In this document: positions 12-45,703 of the stretch, piece by piece
Layout of the letters: each line of letters opens with the position of its first letter
How positions within the stretch are numbered: the stretch's first letter is position 1
Assembly (NCBI GenBank): GCA_050309775.1
Contig: JBNRMV010000010.1
Span: forward strand, 23,193 to 87,192
Direction of reading: 5' to 3'
Source of the DNA: Christensenellales bacterium
Lineage (GTDB): Bacteria; Bacillota; Clostridia; Christensenellales; DTU072
Length of the DNA stretch: 64,000 bases
Program-made: the position numbers and the translations under genes
Notes under the pieces: model-generated
Told to the model about the DNA's origin: nothing
The model's database searches: none
The model's input: the letters and a program-made list of their open reading frames with translations, nothing else

Positions 12-2282
12 ATGATTTACGAATACATAGCTCTTTTGAGTAAATCCTTTGAATACAGAAATTATGTGTCAGCAAAATATATGCTCGAATACGTTTTGGA
101 GGAAACCCTTGGCAGAGTGTTTGAGGATGATATGCCGGCAGGAAGATTTGAAGCGTTTACACAAGCGCTTACGGAATACACCGAATATGAAGCAATGACC
201 AGGGACAAAGAAGAAGATGGATATTATGAGGTTGACCCGAAAGCGTTTTTGGATGGAATGCTGACGATATATGAAGAAAGCGGATGGGGCTCTGATGACT
301 TGGGAATCTTGTTCCACAGATATGTCTACGCCGGCCTTACAGAACGAATCATGTATTCGAATTTTGCCGAGCAGGAACTCAGAGAAATGAGAGACAGCAT
401 ATCCGAAGAGTTAATAATTGAATTCACCGAGATTGTTGTCGGAATTATGCAGATTATACAAGAGTACTATGTGTTCGGCAAAGCCGATGGAATAGAGAGT
501 TTTGCCGAAGTTGCCATTGCGATTAGCGCCATAAAAAGCACTCTTGACGAATTCATTGAGGACTATGCTGATGAGTTTGACGACAAATTAAGCACAATTT
601 TGTCATTGCTGCCGGTGTCCGAGGATATGTTGCCTGCGCTTAGTTTGATTCAAACAAAGCTTGGTATGACCAAACTGTCGGGGCTGTTGGCGTTGATTAC
701 TGAAGATATGCTCAGCAGTATCTTTATGCTGGGCGATAAGGATATTAACATAAATCGCGAATTGGAATTTGCGGAACTCAATATGGCAATTTTTGAAGCA
801 AAAGCGCTTGTGGTACTTTATGGAGAGGACTATAACGCTGCAGAATTTGCCGCAAACTATGCCGACAATGACCCTGAAATATTTAAGCCGGTTGTAGAAT
901 TTGTTTTTGAGTTTTTATTTGGCGGATTCCAACCGAAGAATAAAGCTGACCCCGGGTTCTCCGTCGCCAAAAGATTTGAAATGTCCTACTATTTATTAAG
1001 CAATATGATAAAAGACGGCTTTGGCAATAAGATTTGTATCAGCGACGAAAGGTTTGCCGCAATAAAAGAAATTGCCAACAAGCCCTATGACATGACACCT
1101 GTTCCCGAGAACCCGAATGCGGAGCTGACTCCCCCCATTACAATGGAGGATATCGAACAGCTGCTCATAATACCCGCTACTATGAAATTAAGCCAGATTA
1201 TGGAAGAGGTAGCAGAGATTATGTCGTTGCTATATCTGAACGGTGAGGACGAATATTCTAATGAATCTAAGGTAGAACAGTGGACCGTGGCGCTATATCT
1301 TGCAGATATAGATATTGCCAAAATCCAAAACTTCAGAGCTATGCTCGAAAAAAATGCTGCAGACGAAGAAGGAGGAGTTGGCTTTGAGTATGGTCTATAC
1401 GATTCGCAGATTGCTTATATTTTCTATGCGCTATTGACGGCATACGATGAGGACAGCACTCCGTTTACCGTTGAAGAAGTCCAGTCCTGGCTGATATACG
1501 CTTCAAAGCATCCTATTGATTATTATTTAGCCTCTGAACCCTTCGAGATTACTGAGTTGCTCGAAATCCTTAATGAAAATGACGGCGCATACATTGCAGA
1601 ACTTTCTTTATTAGCGGCTAAACTGATTGAACAATACGGCATATACATGAGCGCTCCCGAACATTATGCCCTAATGCTGGAAGAAATTATTGCCGGCACT
1701 TTGACTGCCGTAAAAGCCTATTACGCAGACAACCAGATTGATTTGCCGCAAGAGGCCGTCCTTACGGCGTATAATCTTCTCAAATACATTATAGCGTTCT
1801 ATGGAGATATTCCCTATTCCATTAATGTTCAAGAGGCAGAAATCATGATGGAATTCTTGTCAATCCTGGAATTGGTAATCGGCAACGAGAGATATAATAG
1901 CTTTGAAAAAGTTATTGACCTTATTCTGGATACCATAGGAATTTACAATGAGGTTAGGTATGTGGATGAATGTGAGGAAATTGATGAATATATACATTAC
2001 TTAGACCACAACCTTATCAAAATGATATATGGAATATTCGGAGACACACCAGAAGCGGACTTCGCAGGTTTGGAGGAATATGCAGGAGATCACTCGCCGA
2101 ACGCCTTACTTGTAGCCGTTATTTTGGACAACTACGAGAACATAAAGAAATGGGCGGATATGGAGTATAACTATGAAGAAAACCATGCAGAATTTAGCGA
2201 GGAGATGAATGCTGTAATAGACGCAATTTACAATAACCTCTTTGAAATTATTTATGGTTCTTTTATACGCGTCAAAAGGTAA
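12..2282 (+). CDS. hypothetical hyper-acidic (D/E/Y-rich) 756-aa protein; the frame stays open to the window edge, so the true start may lie upstream
   Basis: Long uninterrupted ORF followed by a strong terminator. No TM segment and no motif I recognise. No in-frame stop between nt 3 and the first ATG. Confidence 0.6.
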   Translation: MIYEYIALLSKSFEYRNYVSAKYMLEYVLEETLGRVFEDDMPAGRFEAFTQALTEYTEYEAMTRDKEEDGYYEVDPKAFLDGMLTIYEESGWGSDDLGILFHRYVYAGLTERIMYSNFAEQELREMRDSISEELIIEFTEIVVGIMQIIQEYYVFGKADGIESFAEVAIAISAIKSTLDEFIEDYADEFDDKLSTILSLLPVSEDMLPALSLIQTKLGMTKLSGLLALITEDMLSSIFMLGDKDININRELEFAELNMAIFEAKALVVLYGEDYNAAEFAANYADNDPEIFKPVVEFVFEFLFGGFQPKNKADPGFSVAKRFEMSYYLLSNMIKDGFGNKICISDERFAAIKEIANKPYDMTPVPENPNAELTPPITMEDIEQLLIIPATMKLSQIMEEVAEIMSLLYLNGEDEYSNESKVEQWTVALYLADIDIAKIQNFRAMLEKNAADEEGGVGFEYGLYDSQIAYIFYALLTAYDEDSTPFTVEEVQSWLIYASKHPIDYYLASEPFEITELLEILNENDGAYIAELSLLAAKLIEQYGIYMSAPEHYALMLEEIIAGTLTAVKAYYADNQIDLPQEAVLTAYNLLKYIIAFYGDIPYSINVQEAEIMMEFLSILELVIGNERYNSFEKVIDLILDTIGIYNEVRYVDECEEIDEYIHYLDHNLIKMIYGIFGDTPEADFAGLEEYAGDHSPNALLVAVILDNYENIKKWADMEYNYEENHAEFSEEMNAVIDAIYNNLFEIIYGSFIRVKR

Positions 2283-2289
2283 TGACGCA

Positions 2290-2321
2290 AAAAGGCGTCC
2301 CCAAAACGGGACGCCTTTTTA
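2290..2321 (+). terminator. rho-independent terminator
   Basis: GGCGTCCC / GGGACGCC stem with a CAAAAC loop, followed by TTTTT. Confidence 0.75.
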
Positions 2322-2361
2322 ATATGATTGCCAATGCATTGAAAATAATAGAGAGAAAACC

Positions 2362-3030
2362 ATGACAATACTGCAAGCAATAGATTTAACAAAAAACTAC
2401 AAAAACGGCGGCGTTATTACAAATGTAATAAAGGGAATCAACCTGGATATTCAAGAGGGTGAATTTGCCGCTATAACAGGTGCGTCCGGCTCGGGCAAAA
2501 GCACTCTTTTATATTTGCTCAGCGGACAAGAAAAGCCTACTTCGGGCAAAGTGTTGTTGAACGGAGAGGATATTTCCCTGTTTTCCGAAAGCAAAATGGC
2601 TGCGCTACGCCGGCGCCAGCTCAGCTTTGTATATCAGTACTACAACCTCATTCCCAACCTTTCGGTCTATGACAACATAGTGCTGCCCGTCCGCATGGAC
2701 AGGCGGCTGACGGCAGCCGACAAAGGATATCTTGAAGAGATTGTGGCGGTTGCGGGTATAAAAAATTTGCTGAAAAAGCGTCCAGACCAGCTTTCGGGCG
2801 GCGAGCAACAACGCGCGGCACTGCTTAGAGCTGTTTTTATTCGTCCGAAAATTATTTTTGCAGACGAGCCGACAGGCAACCTTGACAGCAAGTCCGGCGC
2901 GGCGGTTATGCAGCTAATAAAAGAAATCAATGAGAGATACAAAACTACAGTCGTTATGGTCACGCATTCAGAGGCGCAGGCGGCTTATGCGAACAGGCGT
3001 ATTTACATGAACGACGGAAAAATTCAATGA
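2362..3030 (+). CDS. ABC transporter ATP-binding protein (MacB/FtsE/LolD-like)
   Basis: Walker A GASGSGKST, signature LSGGEQQR, Walker B IFADEPT. The stop overlaps the permease start (ATGA). Confidence 0.9.
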   Translation: MTILQAIDLTKNYKNGGVITNVIKGINLDIQEGEFAAITGASGSGKSTLLYLLSGQEKPTSGKVLLNGEDISLFSESKMAALRRRQLSFVYQYYNLIPNLSVYDNIVLPVRMDRRLTAADKGYLEEIVAVAGIKNLLKKRPDQLSGGEQQRAALLRAVFIRPKIIFADEPTGNLDSKSGAAVMQLIKEINERYKTTVVMVTHSEAQAAYANRRIYMNDGKIQ

Positions 3031-5498
3031 TGATAGCCAAGCTGACCTTTAGAAATATCATAAAGAACAAACTCAGAACTGCGGCAATATTGCTTACCGT
3101 GGCTTTGAGTTGCGTTATGCTGTTCTTAGGGTTGATTTATAATCGCCTTGCAGTAGGTCAGTTTATGGAAACCAAAGTTGTAGAATCAGAGAATGCCGAC
3201 CTAAGATTGGCATATACCGCCGGCAGCAGCTCCAGGGTAATTACCGCAGAACACCTTTCGCAATTTGACTCGGAGATTGAATTTGCCGCCGGAGTGCTGG
3301 AACTCTATGGCTCGGCTGCGCTGGACGGACAGCAAGTATATATAAATTTGCGTGGGGCCACCGAAGAAAACATAGACAAATTGAACAACCTGACTTACAT
3401 TGCGCAACAAAACAGAGCAATGCGCAAACACGAATTAGTCATCAGCCAAAAAACCGCTGAAGAATACGGTTTGAAGATAAACAGCACCTTTATGATTGCC
3501 GTCGGCTCCAAGCAGCAGCTTTTTACAGTAGGCAAGATTGCGCAGCATCACGCATGCTTTGACGCCCCCGGCGCCATAGTTATGTACGGCATAGAGAGTT
3601 TTGTAAGCAGCTATTTTTGGGGAGGCGGATTCGGCAAAGTATATAACAAGATTTATATCAAGACTGTTGACGGAGTGAACCAAGACGACCTCGGCAAGAG
3701 AATTATGGAAATTGAAGCCTACAAGGGCTATGACATAAAAGAAACCAGCCAAGATGAGGAATTGCGGCGGCGAGCCAATGAGATAGCCATTCCCGTCACC
3801 ATAGCCGTGCTGGGCTGCCTGCTTTTGGGACTGTTGCTTGTTTATATGGTGTTCAATGCAGGCGTCAAAAAACGCGCGGAACTTATATCCCGACTCAAGT
3901 CGGTTGGCGCAAAAAACAGCTTTATTTCAACAATTTTTATGATGGAATGCTTTATTTATATTGTTATTGGCGCAGGACTGGGGTATTTGTGTAACAAATT
4001 TTTGTTTAAGCATTATTTGCCTAAAATAATAAGTTTTGATACCGCCGATATTTTCTACCGCAATGTTATGATTTATTCTTCTGCTGCAACAGCGGCGACG
4101 GTCTTTATAATGTCGCTGCTGCCGATAATAAAAACACGGGGCGTTGCCATTCGGACAAGTTTTTCCGCAGCAAAAAACACTGTATGGAAAAGCAACCTTA
4201 TTGTTTTTTTGTTGGGCATGGCTATGATTGTAACCGCCGCTTGCCTTTGTATCCCATACCGTCTGGAAGCAAATAGGGGCATAGCCTCGCTGTTGTTGGG
4301 CATACTGGGAATACTTCTTGTTGCGCCTTATGCGGCAAGATATTTTGTCAAGGGACTGCAAAAAGTGTTCCATTGGGGAGTGGCGAACCTGGCGCTCAAA
4401 AATGTTGAGAGCGAAAGAGGGCTGGCAAATACGCTTAGGGTGTTGACCGCAGGTATGATGATTTGTATCATCATCAGCAGCGCGGCAAATATAACCTACA
4501 ATTTGGGGTTGCAGACGGTAGAAAATATTGACAGCGACATTATCATAGAAAATATCCGCGCGCAAAGCCCAACTCCGATAAACACCATAAAATCCATAGA
4601 GGGCGTCTATGATGTGTATGCTTATCAGATGCGAAAAGTGGATATAGTAGCGGCTGGGGAAAAGACAGAGATAAACCTCATCGGCATAAGTCCGGACAAT
4701 CTTGGGTTTATAAAAGATACCGGCAGCGTAAGTTCACGGGAAGAAATTATAAGCATGATTGCAAAGAAAGAGGGTATGCTTATTGATATTTCATATAGCA
4801 AGGTGTTTGGCATAGCCATCGGCGACAAAATCAACATTACTATTGGCGGCATAACGCAAGATATTGCGGTAGTCGGGTTTTTTCAGTCGTACTTCTATGC
4901 GGTTGGTAAAACAGCAGTGATGAGCAATGAATTGATGTCGGAGCTTTTTGGATTGCCTCTGTTTGACAGTCTGGTGTGCAAAACCACCGAAGATGTCGAA
5001 GAGACCATTGCAAAAATCCGCGCAGGACTTGGCACCTATAACATAATTGCCTACAACAAAGGCGCAGCTTATGGCGTCTATCTTACCGTACTTCAAAACC
5101 TGGTAGACTTCAGCAATATTTTTACCTATTTTGTCATACTGGTTTGCATTTTTGGAATACTTACTAACATACTGAATTCCCGTGAAGAGAGGAAGGGCGT
5201 GTTTTATCAGCTATATTCGCTTGGCGTCAGCAGAATGCAATTGTTTTTGTGCGAATTGCTGGAAAGCGTTTTTGTCTTGATTGTGACTTTTGGTTTGACG
5301 GCCGCGGCGCTTGCGCTGTGCAATTATGCGCTGATAAACACCATAGCAATAATGCAAATCTATGTCATGCGCGCCATAAATACAAAAATAGCCTTGACCA
5401 TTTCTGCTATATTTGGAGCATTTTATTTGCTGTTGAGCATAAATTCGTTCTTTACCATAAATAAGAAACAACTTATCGGCGCTATAAAAACCTATTGA
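3027..5498 (+). CDS. ABC transporter permease with duplicated FtsX-type modules (823 aa)
   Basis: N-terminal TM, a large extracytoplasmic segment and a TM cluster, then a second extracytoplasmic segment and a C-terminal TM cluster. Translationally coupled to the ATPase. Confidence 0.85.
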   Translation: MMIAKLTFRNIIKNKLRTAAILLTVALSCVMLFLGLIYNRLAVGQFMETKVVESENADLRLAYTAGSSSRVITAEHLSQFDSEIEFAAGVLELYGSAALDGQQVYINLRGATEENIDKLNNLTYIAQQNRAMRKHELVISQKTAEEYGLKINSTFMIAVGSKQQLFTVGKIAQHHACFDAPGAIVMYGIESFVSSYFWGGGFGKVYNKIYIKTVDGVNQDDLGKRIMEIEAYKGYDIKETSQDEELRRRANEIAIPVTIAVLGCLLLGLLLVYMVFNAGVKKRAELISRLKSVGAKNSFISTIFMMECFIYIVIGAGLGYLCNKFLFKHYLPKIISFDTADIFYRNVMIYSSAATAATVFIMSLLPIIKTRGVAIRTSFSAAKNTVWKSNLIVFLLGMAMIVTAACLCIPYRLEANRGIASLLLGILGILLVAPYAARYFVKGLQKVFHWGVANLALKNVESERGLANTLRVLTAGMMICIIISSAANITYNLGLQTVENIDSDIIIENIRAQSPTPINTIKSIEGVYDVYAYQMRKVDIVAAGEKTEINLIGISPDNLGFIKDTGSVSSREEIISMIAKKEGMLIDISYSKVFGIAIGDKINITIGGITQDIAVVGFFQSYFYAVGKTAVMSNELMSELFGLPLFDSLVCKTTEDVEETIAKIRAGLGTYNIIAYNKGAAYGVYLTVLQNLVDFSNIFTYFVILVCIFGILTNILNSREERKGVFYQLYSLGVSRMQLFLCELLESVFVLIVTFGLTAAALALCNYALINTIAIMQIYVMRAINTKIALTISAIFGAFYLLLSINSFFTINKKQLIGAIKTY

Positions 5499-27492: not shown

Positions 27493-28920
27493 TTGAGGAA
27501 TCTCACCTTATTGACTGATTTATATCAGTTAACAATGATGAACGCTTATATTGAGGCAGGCATTGCCGACAGAAACAGCGTTTTTGATATTTTTTATCGT
27601 GGCAACGAAAATATAGAATATGCCGTTGCCGCAGGACTGGATACGGCTATTGAGTATATCAACAACCTACATTTTTCCGATGATGATATAGCCTATCTCC
27701 GCAGTCTGAATTTGTTTTGTGAGGATTTTTTCAAAGCGATAAGGGACTTCAAATTTACGGGGGATATCTATGCGGTAAGGGAGGGAGAATTCATATTTCC
27801 CACAGAGCCGATATTGACGGTGAAAGCTCCGCTTTTCCAAGCGCAGTTGCTGGAAACGGCGCTTTTGAATATCATAAATCACCAAACTTTGATAGCCACA
27901 AAGGCGACAAAAATTACGCAGGAGGCCAAGGGCGGAGCAGTCATGGAATTTGGTTTGCGCAGAGCGCAGGGCCCCGATGCCGGTATATATGGCTCAAGAG
28001 CCTCAATTATCGGCGGCTGCAAATCAACCTCAAATGTGCTTGCCGGACAAATGTTCGGTATAAATGTGTCGGGAACGCATGCGCATAGCTGGGTAATGAG
28101 TTTTCCTTGCGAGTTGGATGCATTCCGCGCATATGCAAAGTCCTACCCCACGAGTTGTTTGTTACTTGTGGATACATATGACACCTTGCGTTCGGGAGTG
28201 CCGAACGCCATAAAAGTTTTTGACGAGTTGCGCAGCAAGGGTTATGAGCCACTAGGCATAAGGTTGGACAGCGGGGATATTGCGTATCTTTCAAAGCGCG
28301 CCAGAAAGATGTTGGACGATGCCGGCTATCCCGATGCCAAGATAGTGGCATCAGGTGACATTGACGAAAACATACTGTCATCGCTTCACCAACAAGGAGC
28401 AAGAATAGATTTGTGGGGTATCGGCACAAAACTGATTACTTCGGCGCCAAACCCTGCTTTGGGCGGAGTGTATAAATTGGCAGCTATTGAAGAACACGGC
28501 GTTTGGATGCCAAAAATGAAGATATCGGATACCCAAGAGAAAATAACCAATCCCGGACTAAAAACGACATACAGAATATATGACGAAGAAAACATGGCGG
28601 CTGCCGACCTCATTTGTTTGAAAGACGAGGTTTTTGATACCACCAAGCCTTTGACGATTTTCCATCCGGTGGACACATGGAAAAAGACGACATTTACCAA
28701 GTATTCCATGCGCAATCTTATGGTTGATATCTTTGTCGGCGGCAAGCAGGTTTATACATCTCCCAACCTGCACGAAATAGCCGAGTATGCCACAAAGGTG
28801 CGCAATGAGTTTTGGGAAGAATATCACCGCTTGATAAATCCGCATATCTACAAGGTAGACTTAAGCGACAAACTTTATGACCTCAAGCACCTGCTGATAG
28901 CCCAGAACACCTTTGAATGA
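27493..28920 (+). CDS. pncB: nicotinate phosphoribosyltransferase
   Basis: 475 aa with the N-terminus LLTDLYQLTMM, typical of NAPRTase. Confidence 0.9.
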   Translation: MRNLTLLTDLYQLTMMNAYIEAGIADRNSVFDIFYRGNENIEYAVAAGLDTAIEYINNLHFSDDDIAYLRSLNLFCEDFFKAIRDFKFTGDIYAVREGEFIFPTEPILTVKAPLFQAQLLETALLNIINHQTLIATKATKITQEAKGGAVMEFGLRRAQGPDAGIYGSRASIIGGCKSTSNVLAGQMFGINVSGTHAHSWVMSFPCELDAFRAYAKSYPTSCLLLVDTYDTLRSGVPNAIKVFDELRSKGYEPLGIRLDSGDIAYLSKRARKMLDDAGYPDAKIVASGDIDENILSSLHQQGARIDLWGIGTKLITSAPNPALGGVYKLAAIEEHGVWMPKMKISDTQEKITNPGLKTTYRIYDEENMAAADLICLKDEVFDTTKPLTIFHPVDTWKKTTFTKYSMRNLMVDIFVGGKQVYTSPNLHEIAEYATKVRNEFWEEYHRLINPHIYKVDLSDKLYDLKHLLIAQNTFE

Positions 28921-28960
28921 CATTTTAAGAGCAGTATACGCCAAAAGTAGGTAAAATTAT

Positions 28961-28989
28961 TTGACAAAGCGTCAGATTTTAAGGATAAT
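28961..28989 (+). promoter_or_regulatory. putative promoter of tRNA-Ser(UGA)
   Basis: TTGACA, 17-nt spacer, GATAAT, about 85 nt upstream of the tRNA 5' end. Confidence 0.5.
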
Positions 28990-29072
28990 AAGAACTGTCG
29001 TTTGCGCAAGCGTCTCTGAAAGAAAGGAGAGGGCAGAGGCGCAACAACAGCAATAGCAAAATATTCAAATAC

Positions 29073-29160
29073 GGAGAGTTGGCTGAGCGGTCGAAAGCGG
29101 CGGTCTTGAAAACCGTTGAAGTGAAAGCTTCCTGGGGTTCGAATCCCTAACTCTCCGCCA
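29073..29160 (+). tRNA. tRNA-Ser (anticodon UGA), CCA encoded
   Basis: Manual cloverleaf: acceptor GGAGAGT/ACTCTCC, anticodon loop CTTGAAA, long variable arm, T-arm with TTCGAAT, 3' GCCA. Confidence 0.95.
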
Positions 29161-29376
29161 TAGACTAGAAAGGGGGCATTTGCCCCCTTTCTACTAGGTC
29201 AATATGAAGTTATGGATTCGAACGGGCAGATAAGGCGAAAGCATGGTTGCTTTCGCCCTGCCTCGGCGTGATAGCGCAGGGCAACGACAGCGGGAACAAG
29301 CAAAAGTTCTCCTAGCCAAATTATGAATGAGAATGAGTTTATCGCCCAAGCGGAGCGAATCCCTAACTCTCCGCCA
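29161..29376 (+). mobile_element. putative miniature tRNA-targeting integrative element or its remnant (196-bp body plus duplicated tRNA 3' end); no recombinase gene
   Basis: The body is bounded by perfect 21-nt direct repeats CGAATCCCTAACTCTCCGCCA (29140-29160, inside the tRNA, and 29356-29376). Confidence 0.4.
29163..29358 (+). repeat. 196-bp repeat, left copy (inverted relative to 31255-31450)
   Basis: Manual alignment to the reverse complement of 31255-31450 shows 2 mismatches (29275, 29321). Confidence 0.9.
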
Positions 29377-29407
29377 AAACAAAAGAGAGAGCCCAAAGCC
29401 CTCTCTT
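29376..29407 (-). terminator. rho-independent terminator of the 29452-30543 gene
   Basis: Minus strand: AAGAGAGgGC / GCtCTCTCTT hairpin followed by TTGTTTT. Confidence 0.55.
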
Positions 29408-29451
29408 GTTGTCTACAAATCTAAAACCAGTTTATTTTTTCTTGCCAATCT

Positions 29452-30543
29452 CTACAAAAGCAAAGTCTTGTCTTCGCCCATGCCCATCATGCCGTCAAGG
29501 ATATATTTGTTGCCGTCTTCGTCTTTCAGATAGCCTTCCAATTCGCCGAATGCAACAAAATAGTCAATGTTTACGATGGGTTTTGCGTGGGTAACCATTC
29601 GGAAAATGTCATATACCTTAAAGGTGACATCTACCATGCCATGGTCGTCCTTGATTTTCCATGTTGCGCCGTCTACAAACTTACGTGTATCCACATCGCG
29701 TTCAAAAGTTACGGGGGGAAGCAGACTAGTTTTGTTCTCAAGCCACATAATATTTTCGTTATACTTGTCCTGGTCTATTGATTGATTGCGCGTAAGGTTA
29801 AACGCAAACCATTTCTTCTCTCCGTTTGTTTCGTTTACGCCCAGTGTTGTCACCCAATCATAGTGAGCCTTTCTGGGGTAGTAGCCTCTGTGGTCGTCAA
29901 CGACAGCGGCAGAGTCCTCGTCGGTATGGTAAGTTTTGCCGTTGAAAGTAAGGGTGCCCGTTGCTTTGAAAAAGTCTTTTTGCGAATACAAAGGACGATG
30001 ACGCACCTCAGGGTCGGCAAAAGGTATGCTGACAATGCTGGGCTTGCTGAGCCTTTCAAGGTCAAAATTGTACTCTATGCTGTTTTGGTTATCTTTGTGA
30101 TGCCCGTCAAGATGGCACTTGCCGTCTTGAAAGTTGTTGATATAATGCACATGCGAAACGGGGGTTTCGCCTTTGGATTCTGCGCCGTTAATCAGGTTTG
30201 GCGCAATTATGGTATCCTTGCTCTTCAATTGCGTGCTCCAAGAATAAACCTTTCTTTCGGCTTTGTCATAATAGATATTGAGCGTAAGCCCAAAAATCCC
30301 CATATCACACACCACCGCCAGCAAAACGCCTTGTTTCATATGCACTTCCGTGGCTTGCCAAAGAGTAAGGCGAAGCCTTTTCATAAAGTCGGGCGCCGCC
30401 GTCGGGTTTTTTATGCCAAGAAGGTCCATGGTTTCGAACTCCTTATCAAAGGTGCCAAAAACGCATTTGCCGTCCTTTACCATGTCTTTAGGAGTGGGAA
30501 CAGCCCGCCTTTCTATTGGGAAAATTCTGCTGTATTTTTTCAT
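29452..30543 (-). CDS. hypothetical soluble protein (possibly DUF2804-like; unverified)
   Basis: Globular-looking 363-aa ORF with a GGAGGT RBS 5 nt before ATG 30543. The antisense 289-aa ORF looks like junk. Confidence 0.7.
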   Translation of the reverse strand: MKKYSRIFPIERRAVPTPKDMVKDGKCVFGTFDKEFETMDLLGIKNPTAAPDFMKRLRLTLWQATEVHMKQGVLLAVVCDMGIFGLTLNIYYDKAERKVYSWSTQLKSKDTIIAPNLINGAESKGETPVSHVHYINNFQDGKCHLDGHHKDNQNSIEYNFDLERLSKPSIVSIPFADPEVRHRPLYSQKDFFKATGTLTFNGKTYHTDEDSAAVVDDHRGYYPRKAHYDWVTTLGVNETNGEKKWFAFNLTRNQSIDQDKYNENIMWLENKTSLLPPVTFERDVDTRKFVDGATWKIKDDHGMVDVTFKVYDIFRMVTHAKPIVNIDYFVAFGELEGYLKDEDGNKYILDGMMGMGEDKTLLL

Positions 30544-30661
30544 TTTTACCTCCAAGTTATTATCTGTAATACAAGTATACACCATGTACGATTTTATATC
30601 AAGATAGCAAATTTTTTGTACTTTTCACCCAAACGTGTGCAAAAGCCGTAAAAATTATGGC

Positions 30662-30690
30662 TTGACTGATACTTGCGTGTAATTTATAAT
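30662..30690 (+). promoter_or_regulatory. putative promoter of the GtrA-like gene
   Basis: TTGACT, 17-nt spacer, TATAAT. Confidence 0.55.
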
Positions 30691-30712
30691 AATTCTATGT
30701 AAGGAGAAAAAT

Positions 30713-31243
30713 ATGATAAATAGAATGAAGAACTTTTTTAGCAAAAATCCCACTGCATGGCAATTTGCAAAATATACAATATTCTCTGTGTCGGCCGGTT
30801 TAATAGAAGTGGGAATATTCATGCTGCTAAACTACCTTTTGCCCAAGAATGGCATAAACAGACCGATAAATTGGTTTCTTTTTGTATATCCCACAGCCGC
30901 CGGCGGACTGGGCGCCTTGATTGCTTTTGTTGTGTCTTCAGTCATCGGTCAAGCCCTGAAATTTATCACAAACTTCAAAAAAACATTTAAGTCCACAAAC
31001 AATATTTTGCTAAGCGCCATAGGCTTTGCCATAATGGCGATAATAGTAGTTGTGGGACTAAACCTCTATGTTGGCGGCATTCTGAACACCGCATTGTGCA
31101 AAGTCATTTCGAACGCTGATATTGCCGGAATGATAGCAAAAATAATCTGTCAAGTTACCGGCTTTCTGCTTGTGTTCCCCGTCAATAAGTTCTTGCTTAT
31201 GAGAACCAAAAAAGCAGATACAACAACAGTGCAAGAGGATTGA
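30713..31243 (+). CDS. GtrA-family-like small polytopic membrane protein
   Basis: 176 aa with four hydrophobic helices. The N-terminus WQFAKYTIFSVSAGLIEVGIF resembles the GtrA family. AAGGAG RBS. Confidence 0.65.
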   Translation: MINRMKNFFSKNPTAWQFAKYTIFSVSAGLIEVGIFMLLNYLLPKNGINRPINWFLFVYPTAAGGLGALIAFVVSSVIGQALKFITNFKKTFKSTNNILLSAIGFAIMAIIVVVGLNLYVGGILNTALCKVISNADIAGMIAKIICQVTGFLLVFPVNKFLLMRTKKADTTTVQED

Positions 31244-31452
31244 GAAGGTGGAAATCGCTCCGCTTGGGCGATAAACTCATTCTCATTCATAGTTTGGCTA
31301 GGAGAACTTTTGCTTGTTCCCGCTGTCGTTGCCCTGCTCTATCACGCCGAGGCAGGGCGAAAGCAACCATGCTTTCGCCTTATCTGCCCGTTCGAATCCA
31401 TAACTTCATATTGACCTAGTAGAAAGGGGGCAAATGCCCCCTTTCTAGTCTG
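31242..31452 (-). mobile_element. second copy of the putative miniature tRNA-targeting element, at tRNA-Ser(CGA)
   Basis: The same 196-bp body abuts the tRNA 3' end. Its inner end carries a 14/16 match to this tRNA's own 3' end (31242-31257 versus 31458-31473). Confidence 0.4.
31255..31450 (-). repeat. 196-bp repeat, right copy (inverted)
   Basis: See the left copy; 194/196 identical by manual alignment. Confidence 0.9.
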
Positions 31453-31541
31453 TGGCGGAGAAGGTGGGATTCGAACCCACGTGACGTTTCCGTCGAACGC
31501 ATTTCGAGTGCGCCTCGTTATGACCACTTCGGTACTTCTCC
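31453..31541 (-). tRNA. tRNA-Ser (anticodon CGA), CCA encoded
   Basis: The reverse complement folds as a class II tRNA: acceptor GGAGAAG/CTTCTCC, anticodon loop CTCGAAA, long variable arm, T-arm GTGGG-TTCGAAT-CCCAC. Confidence 0.95.
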
Positions 31542-40665: not shown

Positions 40666-41337
40666 TTAATGCGGTGAATCCGTCTTGCCGTCGTTTATGT
40701 TTATGATGCGCGAACAGCGTTCGGCGATACTAAGTTCGTGAGTAACCAATACGATAGTTTTTCCTTTGGCATTTATACGAAGCAACATATCCATGATTTC
40801 CTTTGAAGTAGAGGTGTCAAGAGCGCCGGTCGGCTCGTCGGCAAATATGTATTTTGCGTCTGCGGCGAGTGCGCGAGCAATGGCTACGCGTTGTTTTTCT
40901 CCGCCTGAGAGTTGACTAACTTTTTTCTTGAGGAAATGTCCCAATCCTACGCCATAAATCAATTCGGATGCCCTTTTGATTCTTTCAGAACCTTTCATTT
41001 TTATAAAATTCAAAGGCAGCATGACATTTTCGAGTGCCGAACACTCATTTATTAAACAGAAATCTTGCATTACTACGCCAATATTTTGAGAGCGGTATTT
41101 GGCAAGCTCAACATCCTTCAGCCGTGTTATATCTATGCCGTCGACTATTACTTCACCTGAGGACGCCGATTCAATGCCGCATAAAATGTTTAATAGCGTG
41201 GATTTTCCCGAGCCTGATTTACCGGTAATGGCAATACATTCTCCGTCTTGTATTTCGAGACTGAGACCGCCAAGAGCCTTGCATGCGTTGGGCTTGTCTT
41301 CATTAAATATTTTCACCAAATTTTTTATACTTATCAT
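40666..41337 (-). CDS. ABC transporter ATP-binding protein (MacB/LolD-like), last gene of the AT-rich operon
   Basis: Walker A GKSGSGKST, signature LSGGEKQR, Walker B IFADEPT. Its start overlaps the upstream permease-like gene by 35 nt. Confidence 0.9.
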   Translation of the reverse strand: MISIKNLVKIFNEDKPNACKALGGLSLEIQDGECIAITGKSGSGKSTLLNILCGIESASSGEVIVDGIDITRLKDVELAKYRSQNIGVVMQDFCLINECSALENVMLPLNFIKMKGSERIKRASELIYGVGLGHFLKKKVSQLSGGEKQRVAIARALAADAKYIFADEPTGALDTSTSKEIMDMLLRINAKGKTIVLVTHELSIAERCSRIININDGKTDSPH

Positions 41338-42418
41338 GTTTTTTTCCTCTGCGTTTTTTGAATATTAGGTATGTCCTTACCGTTATTGCAATAGCCGTCA
41401 AAGACCCGCCGGCAATCAGGCTGTAGGGAACAAATAGGAGGTTATTGCCTGTAAAGCGCAAGACAAAGAATGCGCATATATAATAAAATGCCCAGCTTGC
41501 GAAGGGCAATGCCAAATCAAGTATTACAATAAAGGTATTTTCGCGCCTTCTCGAAAAAAAGGCAAAGGCAAGGACGGTGTATATGATGCCAATCAATATG
41601 AAAATTGAGATTGCCTTTATGGTTTCAGAATCTTGAAAATTTTGTTTCAAATCGATGTTGCCGCTAAGATAATCTTTGGTTTTCGGCACAGCAAAAACAT
41701 TGCCAAGTCCTTGCAGCCGAGTTGTCACCTCGGTAATATCCGCCTTTTCTGTAAAAGTTAAATATAATGCCTCGTAGCGTTCGGGCAACAGTTCGATGTC
41801 GACATAATTGCTGATGTCGGGAATAATAAGGGAAACATGTGTTATATTTCCTACATTTGGAGTAGGGTAGGGAAACGAATAATACCTATCTACAATGCCG
41901 ACAACTTCAAAACGCACCATAATACTTTTACCCGTAGTAATATCTTGAAATCCTGCGTTGAATATGGTTCCTATATCGTATTTTTCATTTGTATCTGATG
42001 AGGTAATTATGCTGCCTAACAAAACTTCTATTGTTTCGTTCTCCTGTTGTGGCACCGGCATTCGCCCTTTTTCGAGTACTAAATAATCTTCATTGAAAAG
42101 AAAAGGGTCGACAACTTTAATGTCCGGAATGTTGCCTAAAGTTATAGAATTATTCAAAGAGGATATACCTTCAAGTTCGGCGCCGATTATTTCGTTCAGC
42201 ATCGTATAAAGATTGGGAAGCATGTCTTCATCAACAAAGGGAGTGAAAAGCACGCTGTTTTCTTCAAACTTTGAGGAGTGAACATCCATTATATGTTGCG
42301 ATAATTCGGCGGACGTTGATGCTTCATGCAAATTGTTCGCAATCAATCCCACCGAATACAAGGAAAGCGGTAAAAACAATGCGAAGGCGATTATTATCAG
42401 CGTATTATATTTTTTCAT
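41303..42418 (-). CDS. FtsX-like (1 TM + ectodomain + 3 TM) membrane protein, paralogue 4
   Basis: Topology read from hydrophobic segments. The sequence is divergent. Overlaps its neighbours at both ends. Confidence 0.7.
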   Translation of the reverse strand: MKKYNTLIIIAFALFLPLSLYSVGLIANNLHEASTSAELSQHIMDVHSSKFEENSVLFTPFVDEDMLPNLYTMLNEIIGAELEGISSLNNSITLGNIPDIKVVDPFLFNEDYLVLEKGRMPVPQQENETIEVLLGSIITSSDTNEKYDIGTIFNAGFQDITTGKSIMVRFEVVGIVDRYYSFPYPTPNVGNITHVSLIIPDISNYVDIELLPERYEALYLTFTEKADITEVTTRLQGLGNVFAVPKTKDYLSGNIDLKQNFQDSETIKAISIFILIGIIYTVLAFAFFSRRRENTFIVILDLALPFASWAFYYICAFFVLRFTGNNLLFVPYSLIAGGSLTAIAITVRTYLIFKKRRGKKHDKYKKFGENI

Positions 42419-43493
42419 AGTGCATATCCTTCTCTGCTTTCTTATTTTTTACGCGAACAATTGAAGTTACTGCGATTTTTAAGAAAAGCGGCAATTGTGA
42501 AATAGCAAATACTAATAATGCATAGCCAAACCTCAAGCTGCGCCACGAGCCGGTCAGATTAACAAAAACAGTAATAAGTATTGTTGAAAGAGCAACGGCA
42601 ATTATGAGAAGTAGGGAGAGGGCTTGGCTTGACAAATAATGTTTGTTTATGCCTTGCAAAAGCTTGTTTATATAGAAATGAATGAGAATAAGCGAAATTG
42701 CGCAAACAATAATGCTGATTATTACCGTTGAAAGGTAATACCTGTTCATATAATATCCGCCTTTCCCATCGAGCTGCGCTATTCCGCTTTGGTCTTGGAT
42801 AAGCTGTATATACTCTTGATTTTCATATACGCTCATATAATCATTGAGTAAAACGACACTGTTTCTTCTTTGTGTAAACAAATCGTCATAAACTCCGGTA
42901 TCGGGCAGAAGAATAAGGTTTTGGGAATATTCTAAAAAATCTTTTGAGCTGTATCTCTTATATTCGGGAAGGGCGTAAAGATTGTCGGCTTCCCCCGAAA
43001 CCCTAGCGGCTATTTCCTTTGAGGTTTGCCCGTCCTCAGAAAAAAGCGTAATAGAAAGAGGGGTGTTTAATTTTATATTTGCCAAACGGTCACCCGTCAA
43101 GATGACTGTTGCCATGTTACTGTCGCTGAAACTCAATGTTTCACCTTTCTTCAAACGAAAAAAATCAGCTTCTTCCAACATTGTGCGGTTTACGAGCATC
43201 ACGGGAACCATGGATACCTTGTTGCCGAAGTTAACTTCAGCATACAGCACATTGCATTCGTAGATGTATCCTTTATAAGAACTTATATTGTTTTTCAGCG
43301 TGTCGTCCAAATCAATCAAAGCGCTTTCTTTTTCCACCGATAAATGTACGCGTCCGCGAGGGGCGCTCATCGAATCGGTTATGCGATTTATCCTGATATT
43401 AGAGAAGTCGTAGCAAAGTGATATCAAAATGCCTACAGAACATAGAAAAAGCAAAATTATTAGAGCAATAACTTTATGTTTATGTGAAAGCAT
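42405..43493 (-). CDS. FtsX-like membrane protein, paralogue 3
   Basis: Same 1+3 TM topology with a ~200-aa ectodomain. 14-nt overlaps with neighbours. Confidence 0.7.
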   Translation of the reverse strand: MLSHKHKVIALIILLFLCSVGILISLCYDFSNIRINRITDSMSAPRGRVHLSVEKESALIDLDDTLKNNISSYKGYIYECNVLYAEVNFGNKVSMVPVMLVNRTMLEEADFFRLKKGETLSFSDSNMATVILTGDRLANIKLNTPLSITLFSEDGQTSKEIAARVSGEADNLYALPEYKRYSSKDFLEYSQNLILLPDTGVYDDLFTQRRNSVVLLNDYMSVYENQEYIQLIQDQSGIAQLDGKGGYYMNRYYLSTVIISIIVCAISLILIHFYINKLLQGINKHYLSSQALSLLLIIAVALSTILITVFVNLTGSWRSLRFGYALLVFAISQLPLFLKIAVTSIVRVKNKKAEKDMHYEKI

Positions 43494-44499
43494 TTTTTTC
43501 CCTCCTTTTTTTTATAGTTCGTAGAATAAAAGAAATTGAAACTACGCCAGTTAATAAAACATAAAAAAGACCTACCGCAATATAATCCGAAAAAGAAAGT
43601 CTTGGAAACACAAATATCAGATTCTTCAACTTTTCCAGAAGAAATATATCAAAAAATAAATAAAGGCAAACAGACAAAAGGTATTGAATAAGCGTGAGCG
43701 CAAAAATTTCTGCAGTTAGTATGGCGGTTAGATTGCGGCGAGATTGTCCTAAAAGCCGATAAATTTCAAAACTTGACATTCGTTGCCTTACGATATAACT
43801 ATAACCCAAAAGGAAAGATATAAGCACGCTTACCGCAGGAAGCCAAAGAGTGATAGCTTCCGACCTAAAAAGAATGTTTCGCCATGTCAATTCAGGCATG
43901 GTCTTTACATTTACACTGAATATCTCCGATAAAGTCGAGGCATACCTTATTCTTGCCCTTTTGCTTCTTATATCGATTTTTATTATATTAGCGCCATATA
44001 TTTGCTGTGTCTTCGGCAATGAGGTATAATTGATTTCCAAAATTTCAGCATCGGACTTTCCCACAACTAAGTATTCTTTGCCAAACAATTCAATGCTTTC
44101 TCCTATTTTAATTTCGGCATTTTGAGGAGCAACAACTTGGTTTTCAGATTTTGACCAATCGATTGGCTCTCCTAATAAAGGATATTTGTAGACAACACCT
44201 GTTAAGGATGCGGATATTTTGTAATCGTTATCAAGGTAAATGATGATATTGTCACTCTCGTAGCTGTCCGTGAAAAAAGCGTTCTTCTTCTCGAATTCTT
44301 CCAGCGTAAGCGCATTAGAGAACTTTAGGTCAAAAACTCCGATGTCAGTAGAATTCAAACTTCCCAAAAGAAAAGAATACATGCCCAGCAGGGTGACGCA
44401 CCCCACCGCTTGCGATAATAGAATTGTCAAGAAAACGACTTTATAGGCGGCTATTGTTTTGAAAGATAATTTTAAGAGATTGCTAATTTTATTTATCAT
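43480..44499 (-). CDS. FtsX-like membrane protein, paralogue 2
   Basis: 1+3 TM topology. YRLLGQSRRNL segment after TM2, as in FtsX/MacB permeases. Confidence 0.75.
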   Translation of the reverse strand: MINKISNLLKLSFKTIAAYKVVFLTILLSQAVGCVTLLGMYSFLLGSLNSTDIGVFDLKFSNALTLEEFEKKNAFFTDSYESDNIIIYLDNDYKISASLTGVVYKYPLLGEPIDWSKSENQVVAPQNAEIKIGESIELFGKEYLVVGKSDAEILEINYTSLPKTQQIYGANIIKIDIRSKRARIRYASTLSEIFSVNVKTMPELTWRNILFRSEAITLWLPAVSVLISFLLGYSYIVRQRMSSFEIYRLLGQSRRNLTAILTAEIFALTLIQYLLSVCLYLFFDIFLLEKLKNLIFVFPRLSFSDYIAVGLFYVLLTGVVSISFILRTIKKRREKNAFT

Positions 44500-44506
44500 T
44501 ATTTTG

Positions 44507-45703
44507 CTATCCTCGCCTTAAAATCAAAGATATATTGCGTTGTTTCAATGCCGCCTTCGAACTAAAGAACGCTACCGTTAAAAAAAGGCTACATACAAAC
44601 ACAATCATAACTAAGGCTACCCAAGTATCCAATGCTGCGCGAATAAAGGCGATGGAAGGAACTATGTAATTCAAAAGCAGTATCAATAAAACAATAGAAA
44701 CAATGCAAATGGCTCCGGCCGATAACATTATTATAATGTTTGCGTCTTTGCGCTTTGCGCCGCATAGATACAGGATAGCCACATCTTTTATTGAGATAAA
44801 GGTGAACAGGGCAACCGCCATAGCGAAATTTGAAAGAGTGGTAAGCATTAAGAAACCAAGGATGGGAAAGAAGGTATTCAATATTCCCTTCATCTCGACA
44901 ATTGATTGTGCTTTTAATTCAGATAAATCATAATATGTTCCATAGGATTTTAGATCGGTTACGATTTCCTTCATTCGAATGTCAGTCACTTCGCTCTTAA
45001 ATACAAAAAGATTGGTATGATGCAGATTTAGTTTTATACCCTGTTCCCCCAAAGCGTCGAGGTTGCATAATATTATAGAATCAGAAACGGTTTTGCCCCA
45101 GTTGAAAACCCAAGACAACTCTGTTACGCTGCCCTTCATTCGGAAATAAGGAAAGGATTGCCTTAATATTCCGGTTATTAGGAAGGTCACACGCTTGACG
45201 CTCGCCCCGAAGTATATATCCGTTTCAAAGCGTTCTCCCACCTTTCCAAAAGAGGTAACGGCATTTATTGCTCCGTCTTGATTGGGAACAGAGGTAAAAA
45301 CTTTTCCTTTTAATAAAGGTAAGTCAAAAAGTCTCATCATATCGCCGCTAACACCTTCAACCAGTGTTGTTTTTCCGTCGGAGGTTTTTGTTGCCATACT
45401 TGAGGCTACGCGATAATTGCGCAGTTCTTCAGAATATTTTGTCTCCAGGTCACGTACGGAGATCAGCTCATCAAATTCGCCACCGGAGAAGTCTTCCCTT
45501 AAAAAAGCTTGGCTCTCTACCATATAGAATCCACCTCTCGAAGACAGCGCCTTAGATGAGATTGCGAACTCTGCATTCGCGCTTAAAACATACGTGAGCA
45601 AGGCATACAGAATAACCACGCAAACCGAGATTTGCAATATTAACAGCAAAAAAAGTATCCGATTCTTCCGATACAATCTATAAGCAGATTTTAAGAAAAC
45701 CAC
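44507..45703 (-). CDS. FtsX-like membrane protein, paralogue 1 (GTG start)
   Basis: 1+3 TM topology. LYLCGAKRKD segment after TM2. AAGGGG RBS before GTG 45703. Confidence 0.8.
   Translation of the reverse strand: MVFLKSAYRLYRKNRILFLLLILQISVCVVILYALLTYVLSANAEFAISSKALSSRGGFYMVESQAFLREDFSGGEFDELISVRDLETKYSEELRNYRVASSMATKTSDGKTTLVEGVSGDMMRLFDLPLLKGKVFTSVPNQDGAINAVTSFGKVGERFETDIYFGASVKRVTFLITGILRQSFPYFRMKGSVTELSWVFNWGKTVSDSIILCNLDALGEQGIKLNLHHTNLFVFKSEVTDIRMKEIVTDLKSYGTYYDLSELKAQSIVEMKGILNTFFPILGFLMLTTLSNFAMAVALFTFISIKDVAILYLCGAKRKDANIIIMLSAGAICIVSIVLLILLLNYIVPSIAFIRAALDTWVALVMIVFVCSLFLTVAFFSSKAALKQRNISLILRRG

Follow-up and report, generated by a model that had tools for sequence, protein, structure and literature searches.

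A gene-less, folded element behind two tRNA-Ser genes of a Christensenellales bacterium belongs to an apparently undescribed family at tRNA 3′ ends

What occupies the interval between an intact tRNA-Ser(UGA) gene and a second, displaced copy of the same gene's 3′ end? The question arises in a 64,000-nt stretch of a Christensenellales contig (the window, meaning all of the DNA analysed here), where the first-pass annotation had described a perfect 21-nt duplication of the tRNA end around a body at 29163–29358. A repeat search places the 21-nt sequence CGAATCCCTAACTCTCCGCCA exactly at both 29140–29160 and 29356–29376, with a spacing of 216 nt and 21/21 nucleotides identical, and the body limits are correct to within 1 nt. 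The locus is arranged as follows.

28961–28989: promoter-like site upstream of tRNA-Ser(UGA) (11/12 matches)
29073–29160, plus strand: intact tRNA-Ser(UGA) (ARAGORN; Rfam tRNA, 56.9 bits)
29140–29160, plus strand: repeat copy 1, the last 21 nt of tRNA-Ser(UGA), C56–A76
29163–29200, plus strand: strong hairpin GACTAGAAAGGGGGC ATTT GCCCCCTTTCTACTAGGTC at the 5′ end of the body (sequence, repeats, fold)
29208–29223, plus strand: anti-T segment AGTTATGGATTCGAAC (inverted-repeat search; complementarity to the local tRNA)
29224–29263, plus strand: helix P2 (GGGCAG/CTGCC) around hairpin Pb (GGCGAAAGCA/TGCTTTCGCC) (gut-class alignment and fold)
29264–29279, plus strand: joining block CGGCGTGATAGCGCAG (alignment)
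29280–29355, plus strand: variable P3 domain with closing pair GGC...GCC, followed by the tail CAAGCGGAG (alignment)
29356–29376, plus strand: repeat copy 2, exact copy of tRNA-Ser(UGA) positions 56–76 including CCA
29383–29407: hairpin terminator, also serving the convergent DUF2804 gene (terminator scan)
29452–30585, minus strand: convergent DUF2804 gene (Pfam)

The terminator at 29383–29407 is probably the original downstream flank of tRNA-Ser(UGA). A database look-up for the DUF2804 protein of the window returned no record.

The anti-T segment is a 15/16 reverse complement of tRNA-Ser(UGA) positions 53–68, covering the T-loop, the T-stem, and an acceptor segment, and in consensus folds helix P1 arises between its 5′ part and the fragment downstream. 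The hairpin preceding it lacks a clear U-tract and occurs in both window copies of the body; most relatives of the element have a hairpin or terminator at the equivalent place, between tRNA and anti-T. The joining block hardly differs between the window and the elements at tRNA-His in other gut Bacillota; the P3 domain closes with GGC...GCC in the window and ACC...GGT in the His-class elements, which amounts to compensatory changes, and the conserved tail ends with a G directly before the fragment. Small ORFs over copy 1 were rejected as coding, as they are not preserved in copy 2. Two tRNA-like readings, one folding the fragment together with upstream sequence (T-arm/minihelix) and one on the reverse strand, were rejected by eye, their stems being unpaired.

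The same body had been reported at another tRNA-Ser, and the alignment bears this out: positions 29162–29358 match 31255–31451 (minus strand) at all but 2 of 197 nt, the differences being at 29275 and 29321. This second locus comprises the following features.

31453–31541, minus strand: intact tRNA-Ser(CGA), host of the second copy (ARAGORN; Rfam)
31258–31451, minus strand: second body copy, differing from copy 1 at 2 positions
31413–31450, minus strand: hairpin of the second copy
31390–31405, minus strand: anti-T of the second copy
31350–31389, minus strand: P2/Pb of the second copy
31334–31349, minus strand: joining block of the second copy
31237–31257, minus strand: decayed partial 3′ end of tRNA-Ser(CGA), CGATTTCCACCTTCTCAATCC

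The second body is thus followed by a partial copy of its own tRNA's end (CGATTTCCACCTTCTCAATCC, against CGAATCCCACCTTCTCCGCCA in tRNA-Ser(CGA)), and 14 of the first 16 nt of this fragment match CGAATCCCACCTTCTC. Its anti-T fits tRNA-Ser(UGA) and not the adjoining tRNA-Ser(CGA). Covariance model R1 scores the second copy at 21.7 bits, and a 29-nt probe from the body finds two sites in the window (0 chance matches expected). The UGA-adapted body may have reached the tRNA-Ser(CGA) locus by a second insertion or by gene conversion. The latter is likely because the two bodies are inverted, 2 kb apart, and 99% identical; likewise, 2 mismatches in 16 nt of the CGA fragment, set against 2 in 197 nt of the bodies, fit an older copy with later gene conversion better than a recent insertion.

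The 196-nt insert is a member of a widespread, apparently undescribed family of gene-less, folded elements located just after tRNA genes. Literature searches by concept and by sequence string gave nothing relevant, and we found no earlier description of a gene-less, RNA-like element of 100–200 nt at a tRNA landing site. Members of the family measure 100–200 nt, contain no ORF, and lie immediately 3′ of a tRNA in the same orientation, with a constant layout: the tRNA, usually a hairpin or terminator, the anti-T, a folded core, and the local tRNA 3′ end from the T-loop onward. The neighbouring tRNAs are His, Gln, Arg, Lys, Tyr, Trp, and Ser, which answers in the negative the earlier question of whether copies are restricted to tRNA-Ser. 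The hosts are gut Bacillota and Patescibacteria, the latter with reduced genomes, so that at least two phyla are represented; the suggestion of a miniature gene-less element in the first-pass annotation is borne out to this extent. In Firmicutes bacterium CAG:475, a divergent homologue follows tRNA-His, and its last 25 nt repeat the end of that tRNA exactly. A metagenome scan returned 48 occurrences of the motif at His, Gln, Arg, Tyr, and Ser tRNAs, each with the end of the upstream tRNA repeated behind it, and a covariance-model search added copies after Lys and Trp tRNAs. The class-E covariance model, built from Patescibacteria-type copies only, matches the window copy with 27.4 bits (E = 7e-6). 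At least three further core types share the layout. All confirmed copies lie directly after a tRNA or after a tRNA fragment within an array, with the exception of a decayed orphan (L068).

In the anti-T, all copies at tRNAs with a TTCGAAT loop carry GGATTCGAAC, apart from variants of the last base (CGAAG in type-2 cores, CGAAA in the Trp copy of L071). At tRNA-Lys (L063), where the loop reads TTCGATC, the anti-T is GGGGATCGAA(C/G) although the class-E fragment starts with AAAT, indicating that the anti-T matches the real tRNA. This local adaptation occurs in two different core types at the Lys locus of L063, which is poorly explained by a guide carried in by the element. Together, the anti-T and the fragment form a tRNA-derived inverted pair of 5–13 bp.

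The cores fold, and the folds covary. In 11 class-E sequences, pairing holds in 94% of the cells and both partners change in 13 pairs, a level equalled by 0/500 shuffles, and slid partners give only 29–46%; P2 and Pb both covary in this class. The gut class, which includes the window copy, shows compensatory changes in Pb and P3, and the window RNA folds with z = −6.9. This argues against the earlier notion of a precisely reduced remnant, as the body belongs to a conserved family with covarying helices and is not leftover island DNA. The excess of G:U over A:C mispairs (17 versus 4) favours the tRNA-sense strand as the folded one. G:T pairs are also tolerated in single-stranded DNA, and the strand evidence is therefore no proof of RNA.

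Comparison of related genomes revealed both filled and empty sites. The tRNA-Ser(UGA) site is empty in L108, a relative with 80% NAPRTase identity, and the tRNA-Lys site is empty in L054 and carries one to three elements in L063, L112, and L113. The sequence behind the tRNA is hence no ancient fixed spacer, and relatives with an empty site, which the first-pass annotation had proposed looking for, do occur; the pairs compared are too distant to fix the insertion junctions to the base. Orthologous short-read contigs mostly stop inside the tRNA or the element, which breaks short-read assemblies at tRNA genes, and most gave no filled-versus-empty call for this reason. Tandem arrays occur as well. 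In the CAG:475-like genomes, every contig recovered has an element at tRNA-His, in a search that could find filled sites only.

Both flanks of the element are of local origin. In the window, near-identical bodies are bordered on each side by the end of their own tRNA, and the class-E copies at tRNA-Arg and tRNA-Lys in L063 have cores that are mostly alike (read by eye); their fragments are local, their terminators differ from locus to locus, and each anti-T matches the tRNA beside it. The right junction always falls in the T-loop, between 55/56 and 60/61, and the left junction is variable, lying behind nt 73, behind nt 76, or beyond the terminator; the duplicated tRNA end accordingly spans 16–82 nt. 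CCA is encoded on the displaced fragment and absent from the intact tRNA in L096, and the fragment in L050 has no CCA. A fragment made as cDNA of mature tRNA was rejected on these grounds.

The explanation we favour, at roughly even confidence, is a non-autonomous insertion element that acts through a folded single strand, probably RNA, and duplicates its tRNA target. Insertion would set the anti-T and core just downstream of the tRNA gene and duplicate the target, starting in the T-loop and stopping at nt 73, at nt 76, or where the terminator ends, either by a staggered cut or by target-primed synthesis. The active form would be a folded single strand, most likely RNA produced by read-through from the tRNA promoter; its anti-T may recognise a T-arm, whether that of the tRNA gene or that of the tRNA, and an enzyme would act in trans. 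The element contains a built-in complement of the T-arm and leaves behind a copy of the tRNA end derived from its target. Good terminators stand right before many copies (L063, L081), which would limit read-through and argues against an RNA intermediate and for a process at the DNA level. If the element is mobile, the trans-acting machinery is possibly an RT, a nickase, or a recombinase with RNA or DNA pairing as its guide, and it would use a programmable-looking segment for target recognition.

Candidates for such an enzyme were sought on several levels. The element contains no ORF and no integrase, RT, or transposase was found among the 30 window ORFs scanned, in agreement with the earlier statement that the island of ~200 bp encodes no recombinase. 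The integrase that it was proposed to find beside the same sequence did not turn up, either in the window or as a recurring neighbour of other copies; more generally, no protein is shared among the loci, including those of Patescibacteria, and hypothetical ORFs beside arrays have no Pfam match. Blastn searches of phage and plasmid collections with the window element and a class-E element returned nothing relevant, and two pattern scans of viral contigs gave one antisense tRNA and otherwise no match. In Rfam 15, the window and seven related loci yielded tRNAs only at the gathering threshold; permissive E values (up to 5–10) added noise, with no ribozyme and no group I match.

Known miniature elements provide a partial parallel for the favoured insertion element. 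MITEs and REPIN/RAYT are likewise ORF-less, about 100–200 nt long, folded, multi-copy, and presumably moved in trans. Unlike those of a MITE, the duplications are anchored in the T-loop and vary over the 16–82-nt range instead of having a fixed short length; the terminal inverted pair of the family is tRNA-derived, and no parent IS was found. REP/REPIN palindromes are dispersed across many intergenic sites, whereas the family is found strictly at tRNA 3′ flanks in one orientation; the two copies in the 64-kb window are the only ones there, both at tRNAs.

A possible, more tentative reading is that the element is an RNA-based agent recognising tRNA T-arms by pairing, either as a SINE-like retroelement or as an RNA that replaces tRNA 3′ ends. 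In the SINE-like version, the element would be co-transcribed with its host tRNA and guided to tRNA genes by the anti-T, and the duplicated 3′ end would arise from target-primed synthesis or from template switching on tRNA. Target-primed retroelements (R2, LINE/SINE) similarly have one precise and one variable junction, variable target duplications, and a conserved site in a structural-RNA gene; the element would be co-transcribed as R2 is with 28S rRNA, and a structured RNA would be the mobile form. Chimeras made by RT template switching include Neurospora Mauriceville retroplasmid variants carrying tRNA sequence. The family differs in having no A-tail, terminators upstream of many copies, and no RT in the window. 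No target-primed element of this type is known from bacteria apart from group II introns. Group IIC introns insert after terminators and possess domains I–VI in at least about 600 nt; the family element, at 100–200 nt and with no Rfam match, is different. In the replacement version, the anti-T would splint a tRNA cut in the T-loop beside a spare, genome-encoded 3′ fragment for joining, as a repair or counter-toxin device.

We consider it rather unlikely that the element is a structured RNA tied to tRNA genes for the benefit of the host and not primarily mobile. It might be a module for processing or regulation in tRNA operons, serve as a decoy, or donate a tRNA 3′ part. In the donor role, the anti-T would again be a splint: the end of a T-loop-broken tRNA would be held by its 3′ half (CGAAC; AAC in the gut class) and the spare fragment, through P1, by its 5′ half, with a ligase or the RNA itself joining both. 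As in riboswitches and ribozymes, unpaired blocks are conserved and the hairpins variable but covarying, which speaks for a host RNA, as do the GC-rich elements in AT-rich flanks (L050, L081) and the multiple copies kept in streamlined Patescibacteria genomes. The conserved CGAAC, which has last-base variants only, is unpaired with the class-E fragment and would pair with G53–G57 of the real tRNA. Moreover, the fragment equals the tRNA end across diverged His lineages: at the CAG:475-like locus it is perfect and the trailers are strongly diverged, which looks like selection or concerted evolution and not like a neutral insertion scar. At tRNA-Lys, the fragment follows the acceptor-stem changes between L063 and L112. 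Against a host RNA stand the habits of selfish DNA, namely presence or absence among relatives, arrays, decayed and orphan copies (L068), and interchangeable cores. Terminators also separate tRNA from element, an intact upstream tRNA makes a spare 3′ end needless under normal conditions, and no ribozyme family in Rfam matches. Were it a host RNA, it would represent a new class of structured RNA linked to tRNA integrity.

The model put forward in the first-pass annotation, a miniature integrative element or remnant mobilised in trans, with attL and attR generated by a tyrosine integrase in the T-loop, appears unlikely. tRNA genes are classic landing sites for large islands and prophages, and a direct repeat that begins in the T-loop and runs to the end of the tRNA is the signature classically associated with such integration. 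Decayed or truncated copies are tRNA-distal in most arrays examined, as if new integrations had hit the intact tRNA, and the displaced CCA of L096 would also fit. In L071, partial copies of the tRNA also start in the anticodon arm or loop, which is the second classic site of crossover. In the attL/attR model, the element supplies the tRNA-proximal 3′ end and the sequence adjacent to it. These parts should then travel, including the adjacent hairpin, but they are local in the window and in L063. A UGA-type element within tRNA-Ser(CGA) predicts a mismatched acceptor stem, and none is seen. With ends on either side that agree with the local tRNA, and a duplication of variable length, the classical attL/attR scar is not supported; the covarying helices and the anti-T would have no role in it, and neither an integrase in the window or near copies nor a phage or plasmid homologue was found. 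The islands themselves (P4-like elements, cis-mobilisable elements, satellite tycheposons) resemble the family in occupying the tRNA 3′ side, in a direct repeat starting in the T-loop, and in tandem arrays with older, decayed units farther from the tRNA. They measure kilobases, in contrast to a gene-less 100–200 nt, and the family further departs from them in its two local flanks, its variable duplication, its internal reverse complement of the T-arm, and its conserved covarying core. Island-finding software would misread such att-like repeats of tRNA fragments as integrase scars.

An intron-like element in the T-loop is very unlikely. Exon 1 would be tRNA nt 1–55/57 and exon 2 the downstream fragment, with an intron made of the first 3′ end, the hairpin, the anti-T, and the core; the anti-T would serve as a group I-type internal guide to both exon ends (P1/P10), and a G would precede exon 2. 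The order of guide, core, G, and 3′ exon follows group I logic and resembles that of group I introns and engineered trans-splicing ribozymes; the pairing geometry fits a guide complementary to both exon borders. When the window transcript is folded at minimum free energy, the second fragment takes up the 5′ strand of the tRNA, and the anti-T pairs with the T-arm; in L071, a partial tRNA leads directly into the anti-T, the two forming a perfect hairpin. Nearly every copy has a G before the fragment, but this G carries little weight in a stretch that is rich in G anyway. Opposing an intron, an intact tRNA always stands upstream and splicing is never needed, the would-be 5′ splice site has no U.G pair, and cores of about 90–150 nt are far too small and match no group I or II model.

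Lastly, a one-off duplication of tRNA-Ser followed by gene conversion to the neighbouring tRNA-Ser, to which the inverted, closely spaced, and nearly identical window copies would lend themselves, is hardly credible: these are not the only two copies, and homologues with the same layout stand at other tRNAs in unrelated genomes and phyla.

The two tRNA genes in the window, both tRNA-Ser, are followed on the 3′ side by copies of one ORF-less folded element, whose 197-nt body differs at two positions between the loci.

29073-29160, plus strand: tRNA-Ser(UGA)
29162-29358, plus strand: element body
29208-29223, plus strand: anti-T, a segment complementary to the tRNA T-arm
29356-29376, plus strand: second copy of the tRNA-Ser(UGA) 3′ end
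31255-31451, minus strand: element body, directly adjoining tRNA-Ser(CGA) on its 3′ side
31453-31541, minus strand: tRNA-Ser(CGA)

Both observations made in the first-pass annotation, an exact repeat of the last 21 nt of tRNA-Ser(UGA) (CGAATCCCTAACTCTCCGCCA, C56 to A76) and a body shared with a second tRNA-Ser, were confirmed. A 29-nt body probe matched only these two copies in the window, with no match expected by chance. The anti-T (AGTTATGGATTCGAAC) is the reverse complement, at 15 of 16 positions, of the T-loop, the 3′ strand of the T-stem and the start of the acceptor strand of tRNA-Ser(UGA). The copy at the CGA locus likewise ends in a decayed partial copy of its own tRNA end (CGATTTCCACCTTCTCAATCC versus CGAATCCCACCTTCTCCGCCA). 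Its anti-T is of the UGA type, and decay has gone further in its tRNA fragment than in the adjacent body; gene conversion with the UGA copy as donor has therefore probably overwritten this copy, or else it is an off-target insertion.

The neighboring genes are ordinary chromosomal ones (galactokinase, Lgt, nicotinate phosphoribosyltransferase or NAPRTase, DUF2804, GtrA, glycogen genes, a ribosomal-protein operon), and homologues of the flanking NAPRTase carry the labels Clostridia or Christensenellales. A good promoter is predicted upstream of tRNA-Ser(UGA), and a predicted terminator 3′ of the second repeat copy is shared with the convergent gene. Elsewhere, a low-GC block on the minus strand (41303-45703; 38-39% versus ~45%) holds four consecutive ORFs of 339-398 residues almost devoid of Pfam signal, one with an FtsX-like permease C-terminus, and may be an acquired transporter cluster.

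A scan of genome collections with an 18-mer spanning the anti-T returned mostly chance matches and one real relative, Firmicutes bacterium CAG:475. In this genome, the ~200 nt behind tRNA-His have ATGGATTCGAACGGGCAG, a hairpin and CTGCCnCGGCGTGATAGnGCAG in common with the window body, and next comes the tRNA-His end once more, 25 nt without a mismatch and starting at C56 as in the window. In metagenomes, the pattern GGATTCGAACGGGCA N25-55 GYGCAG identified 77 loci, and behind 48 motif occurrences the end of the preceding tRNA is found again. The majority of these repeat-bearing matches represent the tRNA-His locus of CAG:475-like gut bacteria; other hosts are tRNA-Gln (contigs L050, L081), Arg (L054), Tyr (L067, L071) and Ser (L096), and the L055 contig breaks off at its tRNA. 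Nine environmental, Patescibacteria-type copies (class E) served to build a covariance model, which added copies after tRNA-Lys (L063) and tRNA-Trp (L071) and found nothing in the window beyond the two known copies. Scores with this model were ~31 bits for the His copies; of the window copies, one reached 27.4 bits (E = 7e-6) and the other 21.7 bits. The family is thus not confined to tRNA-Ser, a question raised at first pass, and copies abut tRNAs for seven amino acids; the exception is an orphan class-E copy (L068, 466-626) without an upstream tRNA. This orphan has a mutated fragment (AAATTCCACC...) followed by a second, degenerate anti-T-like stretch, and demonstrates that copies can outlive their tRNA. 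L063 comes from a member of the Patescibacteria, the nearest relatives of its TypA bearing the labels Harrisonbacteria, Uhrbacteria, Parcubacteria and Patescibacteria group; together with the window and gut copies, this placement indicates that the family spans at least Bacillota and Patescibacteria.

All units are oriented in the tRNA sense. Behind an intact tRNA comes, in most cases, a hairpin or true terminator, then the anti-T, a folded core and a second copy of the local tRNA 3′ end (the fragment). The anti-T follows the hairpin or terminator after 7-13 nt and matches the local tRNA over 10-16 nt; at tRNA-Lys, whose loop reads TTCGATC, the adjoining anti-T is GGGGATCGAA(C/G) in two different core types. 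The first nucleotide of the fragment lies within the T-loop: C56 for the gut class (the window copies and the tRNA-His copies of gut Bacillota) and ~A57-C61 for other copies. Its end varies from nt 73 (L096) to CCA (window, L081, L067), and in some copies it runs on through the terminator (51 nt in L054, 80 in L049, 79 in L094, 82 in L071; also L113), the duplicated length ranging five-fold overall. At least two further core types have the same layout (L063 8800-8935 and 9255-9345; L112 ~3500-3590, minus strand; L113 240-360), with an anti-T ending in CGAAG or CGAAC, then core, then local fragment. Type 2 cores start with GGCGCGAG... and type 3 cores with CCCATGGGTTCGCAAGGG..., and such units alternate with class-E units in arrays.

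The core fold is conserved. In an alignment of 11 class-E sequences, 94% of cells pair and both partners vary in 13 of 27 pairs, values matched by 0 of 500 shuffles; sliding the partner columns by 1-3 lowers pairing to 29-46%. Most of the covariation comes from helix P2 (GGGCAG/CTGCCC, with variants GGGCAC/GTGCCC and AAGCAGC/GCTGCTT) and hairpin Pb. G:U outnumbers A:C by 17 to 4, which indicates that the tRNA-sense strand is the folded one. The gut-class alignment, comprising the two window copies and five His lineages, has in common the anti-T, P2/Pb, the block GGCGTGATAGYGCAG and the tail CAARCGGMG, and the closing pairs of helix P3 show a compensatory change, ACC/GGT in His elements versus GGC/GCC in the window. 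Helix P1 is formed by the anti-T and the fragment start (GGATTCG:CGAATCC; 13 bp in the window), and the predicted fold of the window transcript has a z of -6.9 relative to shuffles. No copy matched an Rfam family, even at permissive thresholds.

Sites are found filled and empty. An empty site of the kind sought at first pass occurs in a relative, L108 (GCA_001512685.1; NAPRTase 80% identity), where tRNA-Ser(UGA) is followed by a plain terminator only. Comparison of L108 5958-7500 with window 28920-31541 also reveals a rearranged locus: L108 has neither a tRNA after NAPRTase nor the DUF2804 gene, and carries tRNA-Ser(UGA), not CGA, on the minus strand next to GtrA; inverted elements possibly mediated this change. 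Patescibacteria related to L063 vary at the same Arg-Lys tRNA pair.

Elements at the Arg-Lys tRNA pair of related Patescibacteria
L063: after tRNA-Arg, type 2, then a class-E copy with decayed fragment; after tRNA-Lys, type 2, class E, type 2
L054 (kinship from the shared locus and similar tRNA/terminator sequences; no TypA value): class E after tRNA-Arg; nothing after tRNA-Lys
L112 (TypA 87%): a different 245-nt spacer after tRNA-Arg; one type-2 unit after tRNA-Lys
L113 (TypA 83%): after tRNA-Lys, a third core type with duplicated terminator, then a decayed unit

The type-2 fragment of L112 reproduces its own tRNA-Lys acceptor sequence, which differs from that of L063. At the His loci, a short terminal copy comes after a single full unit or a pair of them, trailers recombine between units, and the tRNA fragment stays perfect in diverged loci. 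Judged from these comparisons, the elements behave like inserted DNA. The short unit ending every tRNA-His array (L002 ~2900-2960, minus strand; same place in ~40 CAG:475-like loci) comprises trailer, anti-T, one hairpin and GAAAAAGTGCAG; no fragment follows, and the tRNA-Gln promoter comes directly after. This unit is a truncated copy of some age or else a minimal form that now serves as terminator or promoter context. L112 also has a 490-residue ORF without Pfam match (1948-3420), between a T2SSE gene and the tRNA-Lys element, that is missing from the same interval of a relative's contig (P0124) and appears missing in L054.

Each unit has one precise junction in the T-loop and one variable junction at the tRNA end or beyond, with a target-derived duplication between them. 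This duplication could arise from staggered cleavage with fill-in or from target-primed synthesis; the precise cut would then lie on the tRNA-complementary strand. The conserved tRNA-sense fold and the orientation rule suggest a single-stranded active form, most likely an RNA produced by read-through from the tRNA promoter, and recognition of the T-arm, in the tRNA gene or in the tRNA, would most naturally fall to the anti-T. Against this mechanism stand the strong terminators preceding many units, the local adaptation of the anti-T in two core types at tRNA-Lys and the perfect fragment maintained in diverged His loci. The last of these, like the structure, agrees with an RNA serving the host, an unlikely competitor: with its 5′ half bound to the spare fragment, the anti-T keeps its conserved 3′ half available for pairing with G53-G57 of the real tRNA, as a splint would, and could in this way allow a damaged 3′ portion of the tRNA to be exchanged. 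The turnover of units, their arrays and decayed copies, and the exchange of one core type for another speak against a role for the host alone.

We give slightly less credence to the classical attL/attR scar proposed at first pass. An integrase-mediated insertion restores the tRNA with a 3′ end brought by the element and pushes the host's own end to the distal boundary, so copies of one element should share the tRNA-proximal end. The two bodies in the window agree at 99% of positions, but in both tRNAs the two strands of the acceptor stem match each other, whereas a UGA-type crossover in the T-loop of tRNA-Ser(CGA) predicts a mismatched acceptor stem. The L063 class-E cores at Arg and Lys, mostly the same sequence by inspection, likewise have local fragments, terminators and anti-T, and the five-fold spread in duplicated length also disagrees with an integrase. 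The 30 window ORFs scanned include no integrase, reverse transcriptase or transposase, in keeping with the first-pass view of an element without a recombinase gene; no protein recurs beside the elements at the compared loci, and searches of phage and plasmid collections matched neither the window element nor the class-E element. A T-loop intron is improbable: the order of guide, core, G and exon 2 and a predicted alternative fold agree with it, but the tRNA is intact in every case, no group I or II core is detectable, and a U.G pair is absent. A local accident around tRNA-Ser, including two copies made by local duplication, is practically eliminated by the family in other genomes.

Neither Rfam 15 nor the openly searchable literature describes the element by concept or sequence, and it does not classify as an integrase island, MITE, REPIN or intron. 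Conservatively, it can be grouped with known elements that use tRNA genes as insertion sites and leave the tRNA end duplicated; an RNA-guided or retro-type mechanism, if confirmed, would place it in a new category. The short-read contigs from the window species and from relatives (L102-L107, L111, L114) all break off within tRNA-Ser or no more than 30 nt into the element, the behavior expected of a repeat, and such elements will be systematically under-represented in metagenome assemblies. Other tRNA-derived pieces occur in L071, a Patescibacteria-like 679-kb contig (1285-1500, 2039-2215): a partial tRNA copy, from anticodon arm to T-arm, lies 3′ of tRNA-Thr(GGT), and a second tRNA-Thr-like copy with two insertions, one in the D-loop and one in the anticodon loop, lies 3′ of tRNA-Thr(UGU). 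The tRNA genes of this genome seem to draw several kinds of small insertions.
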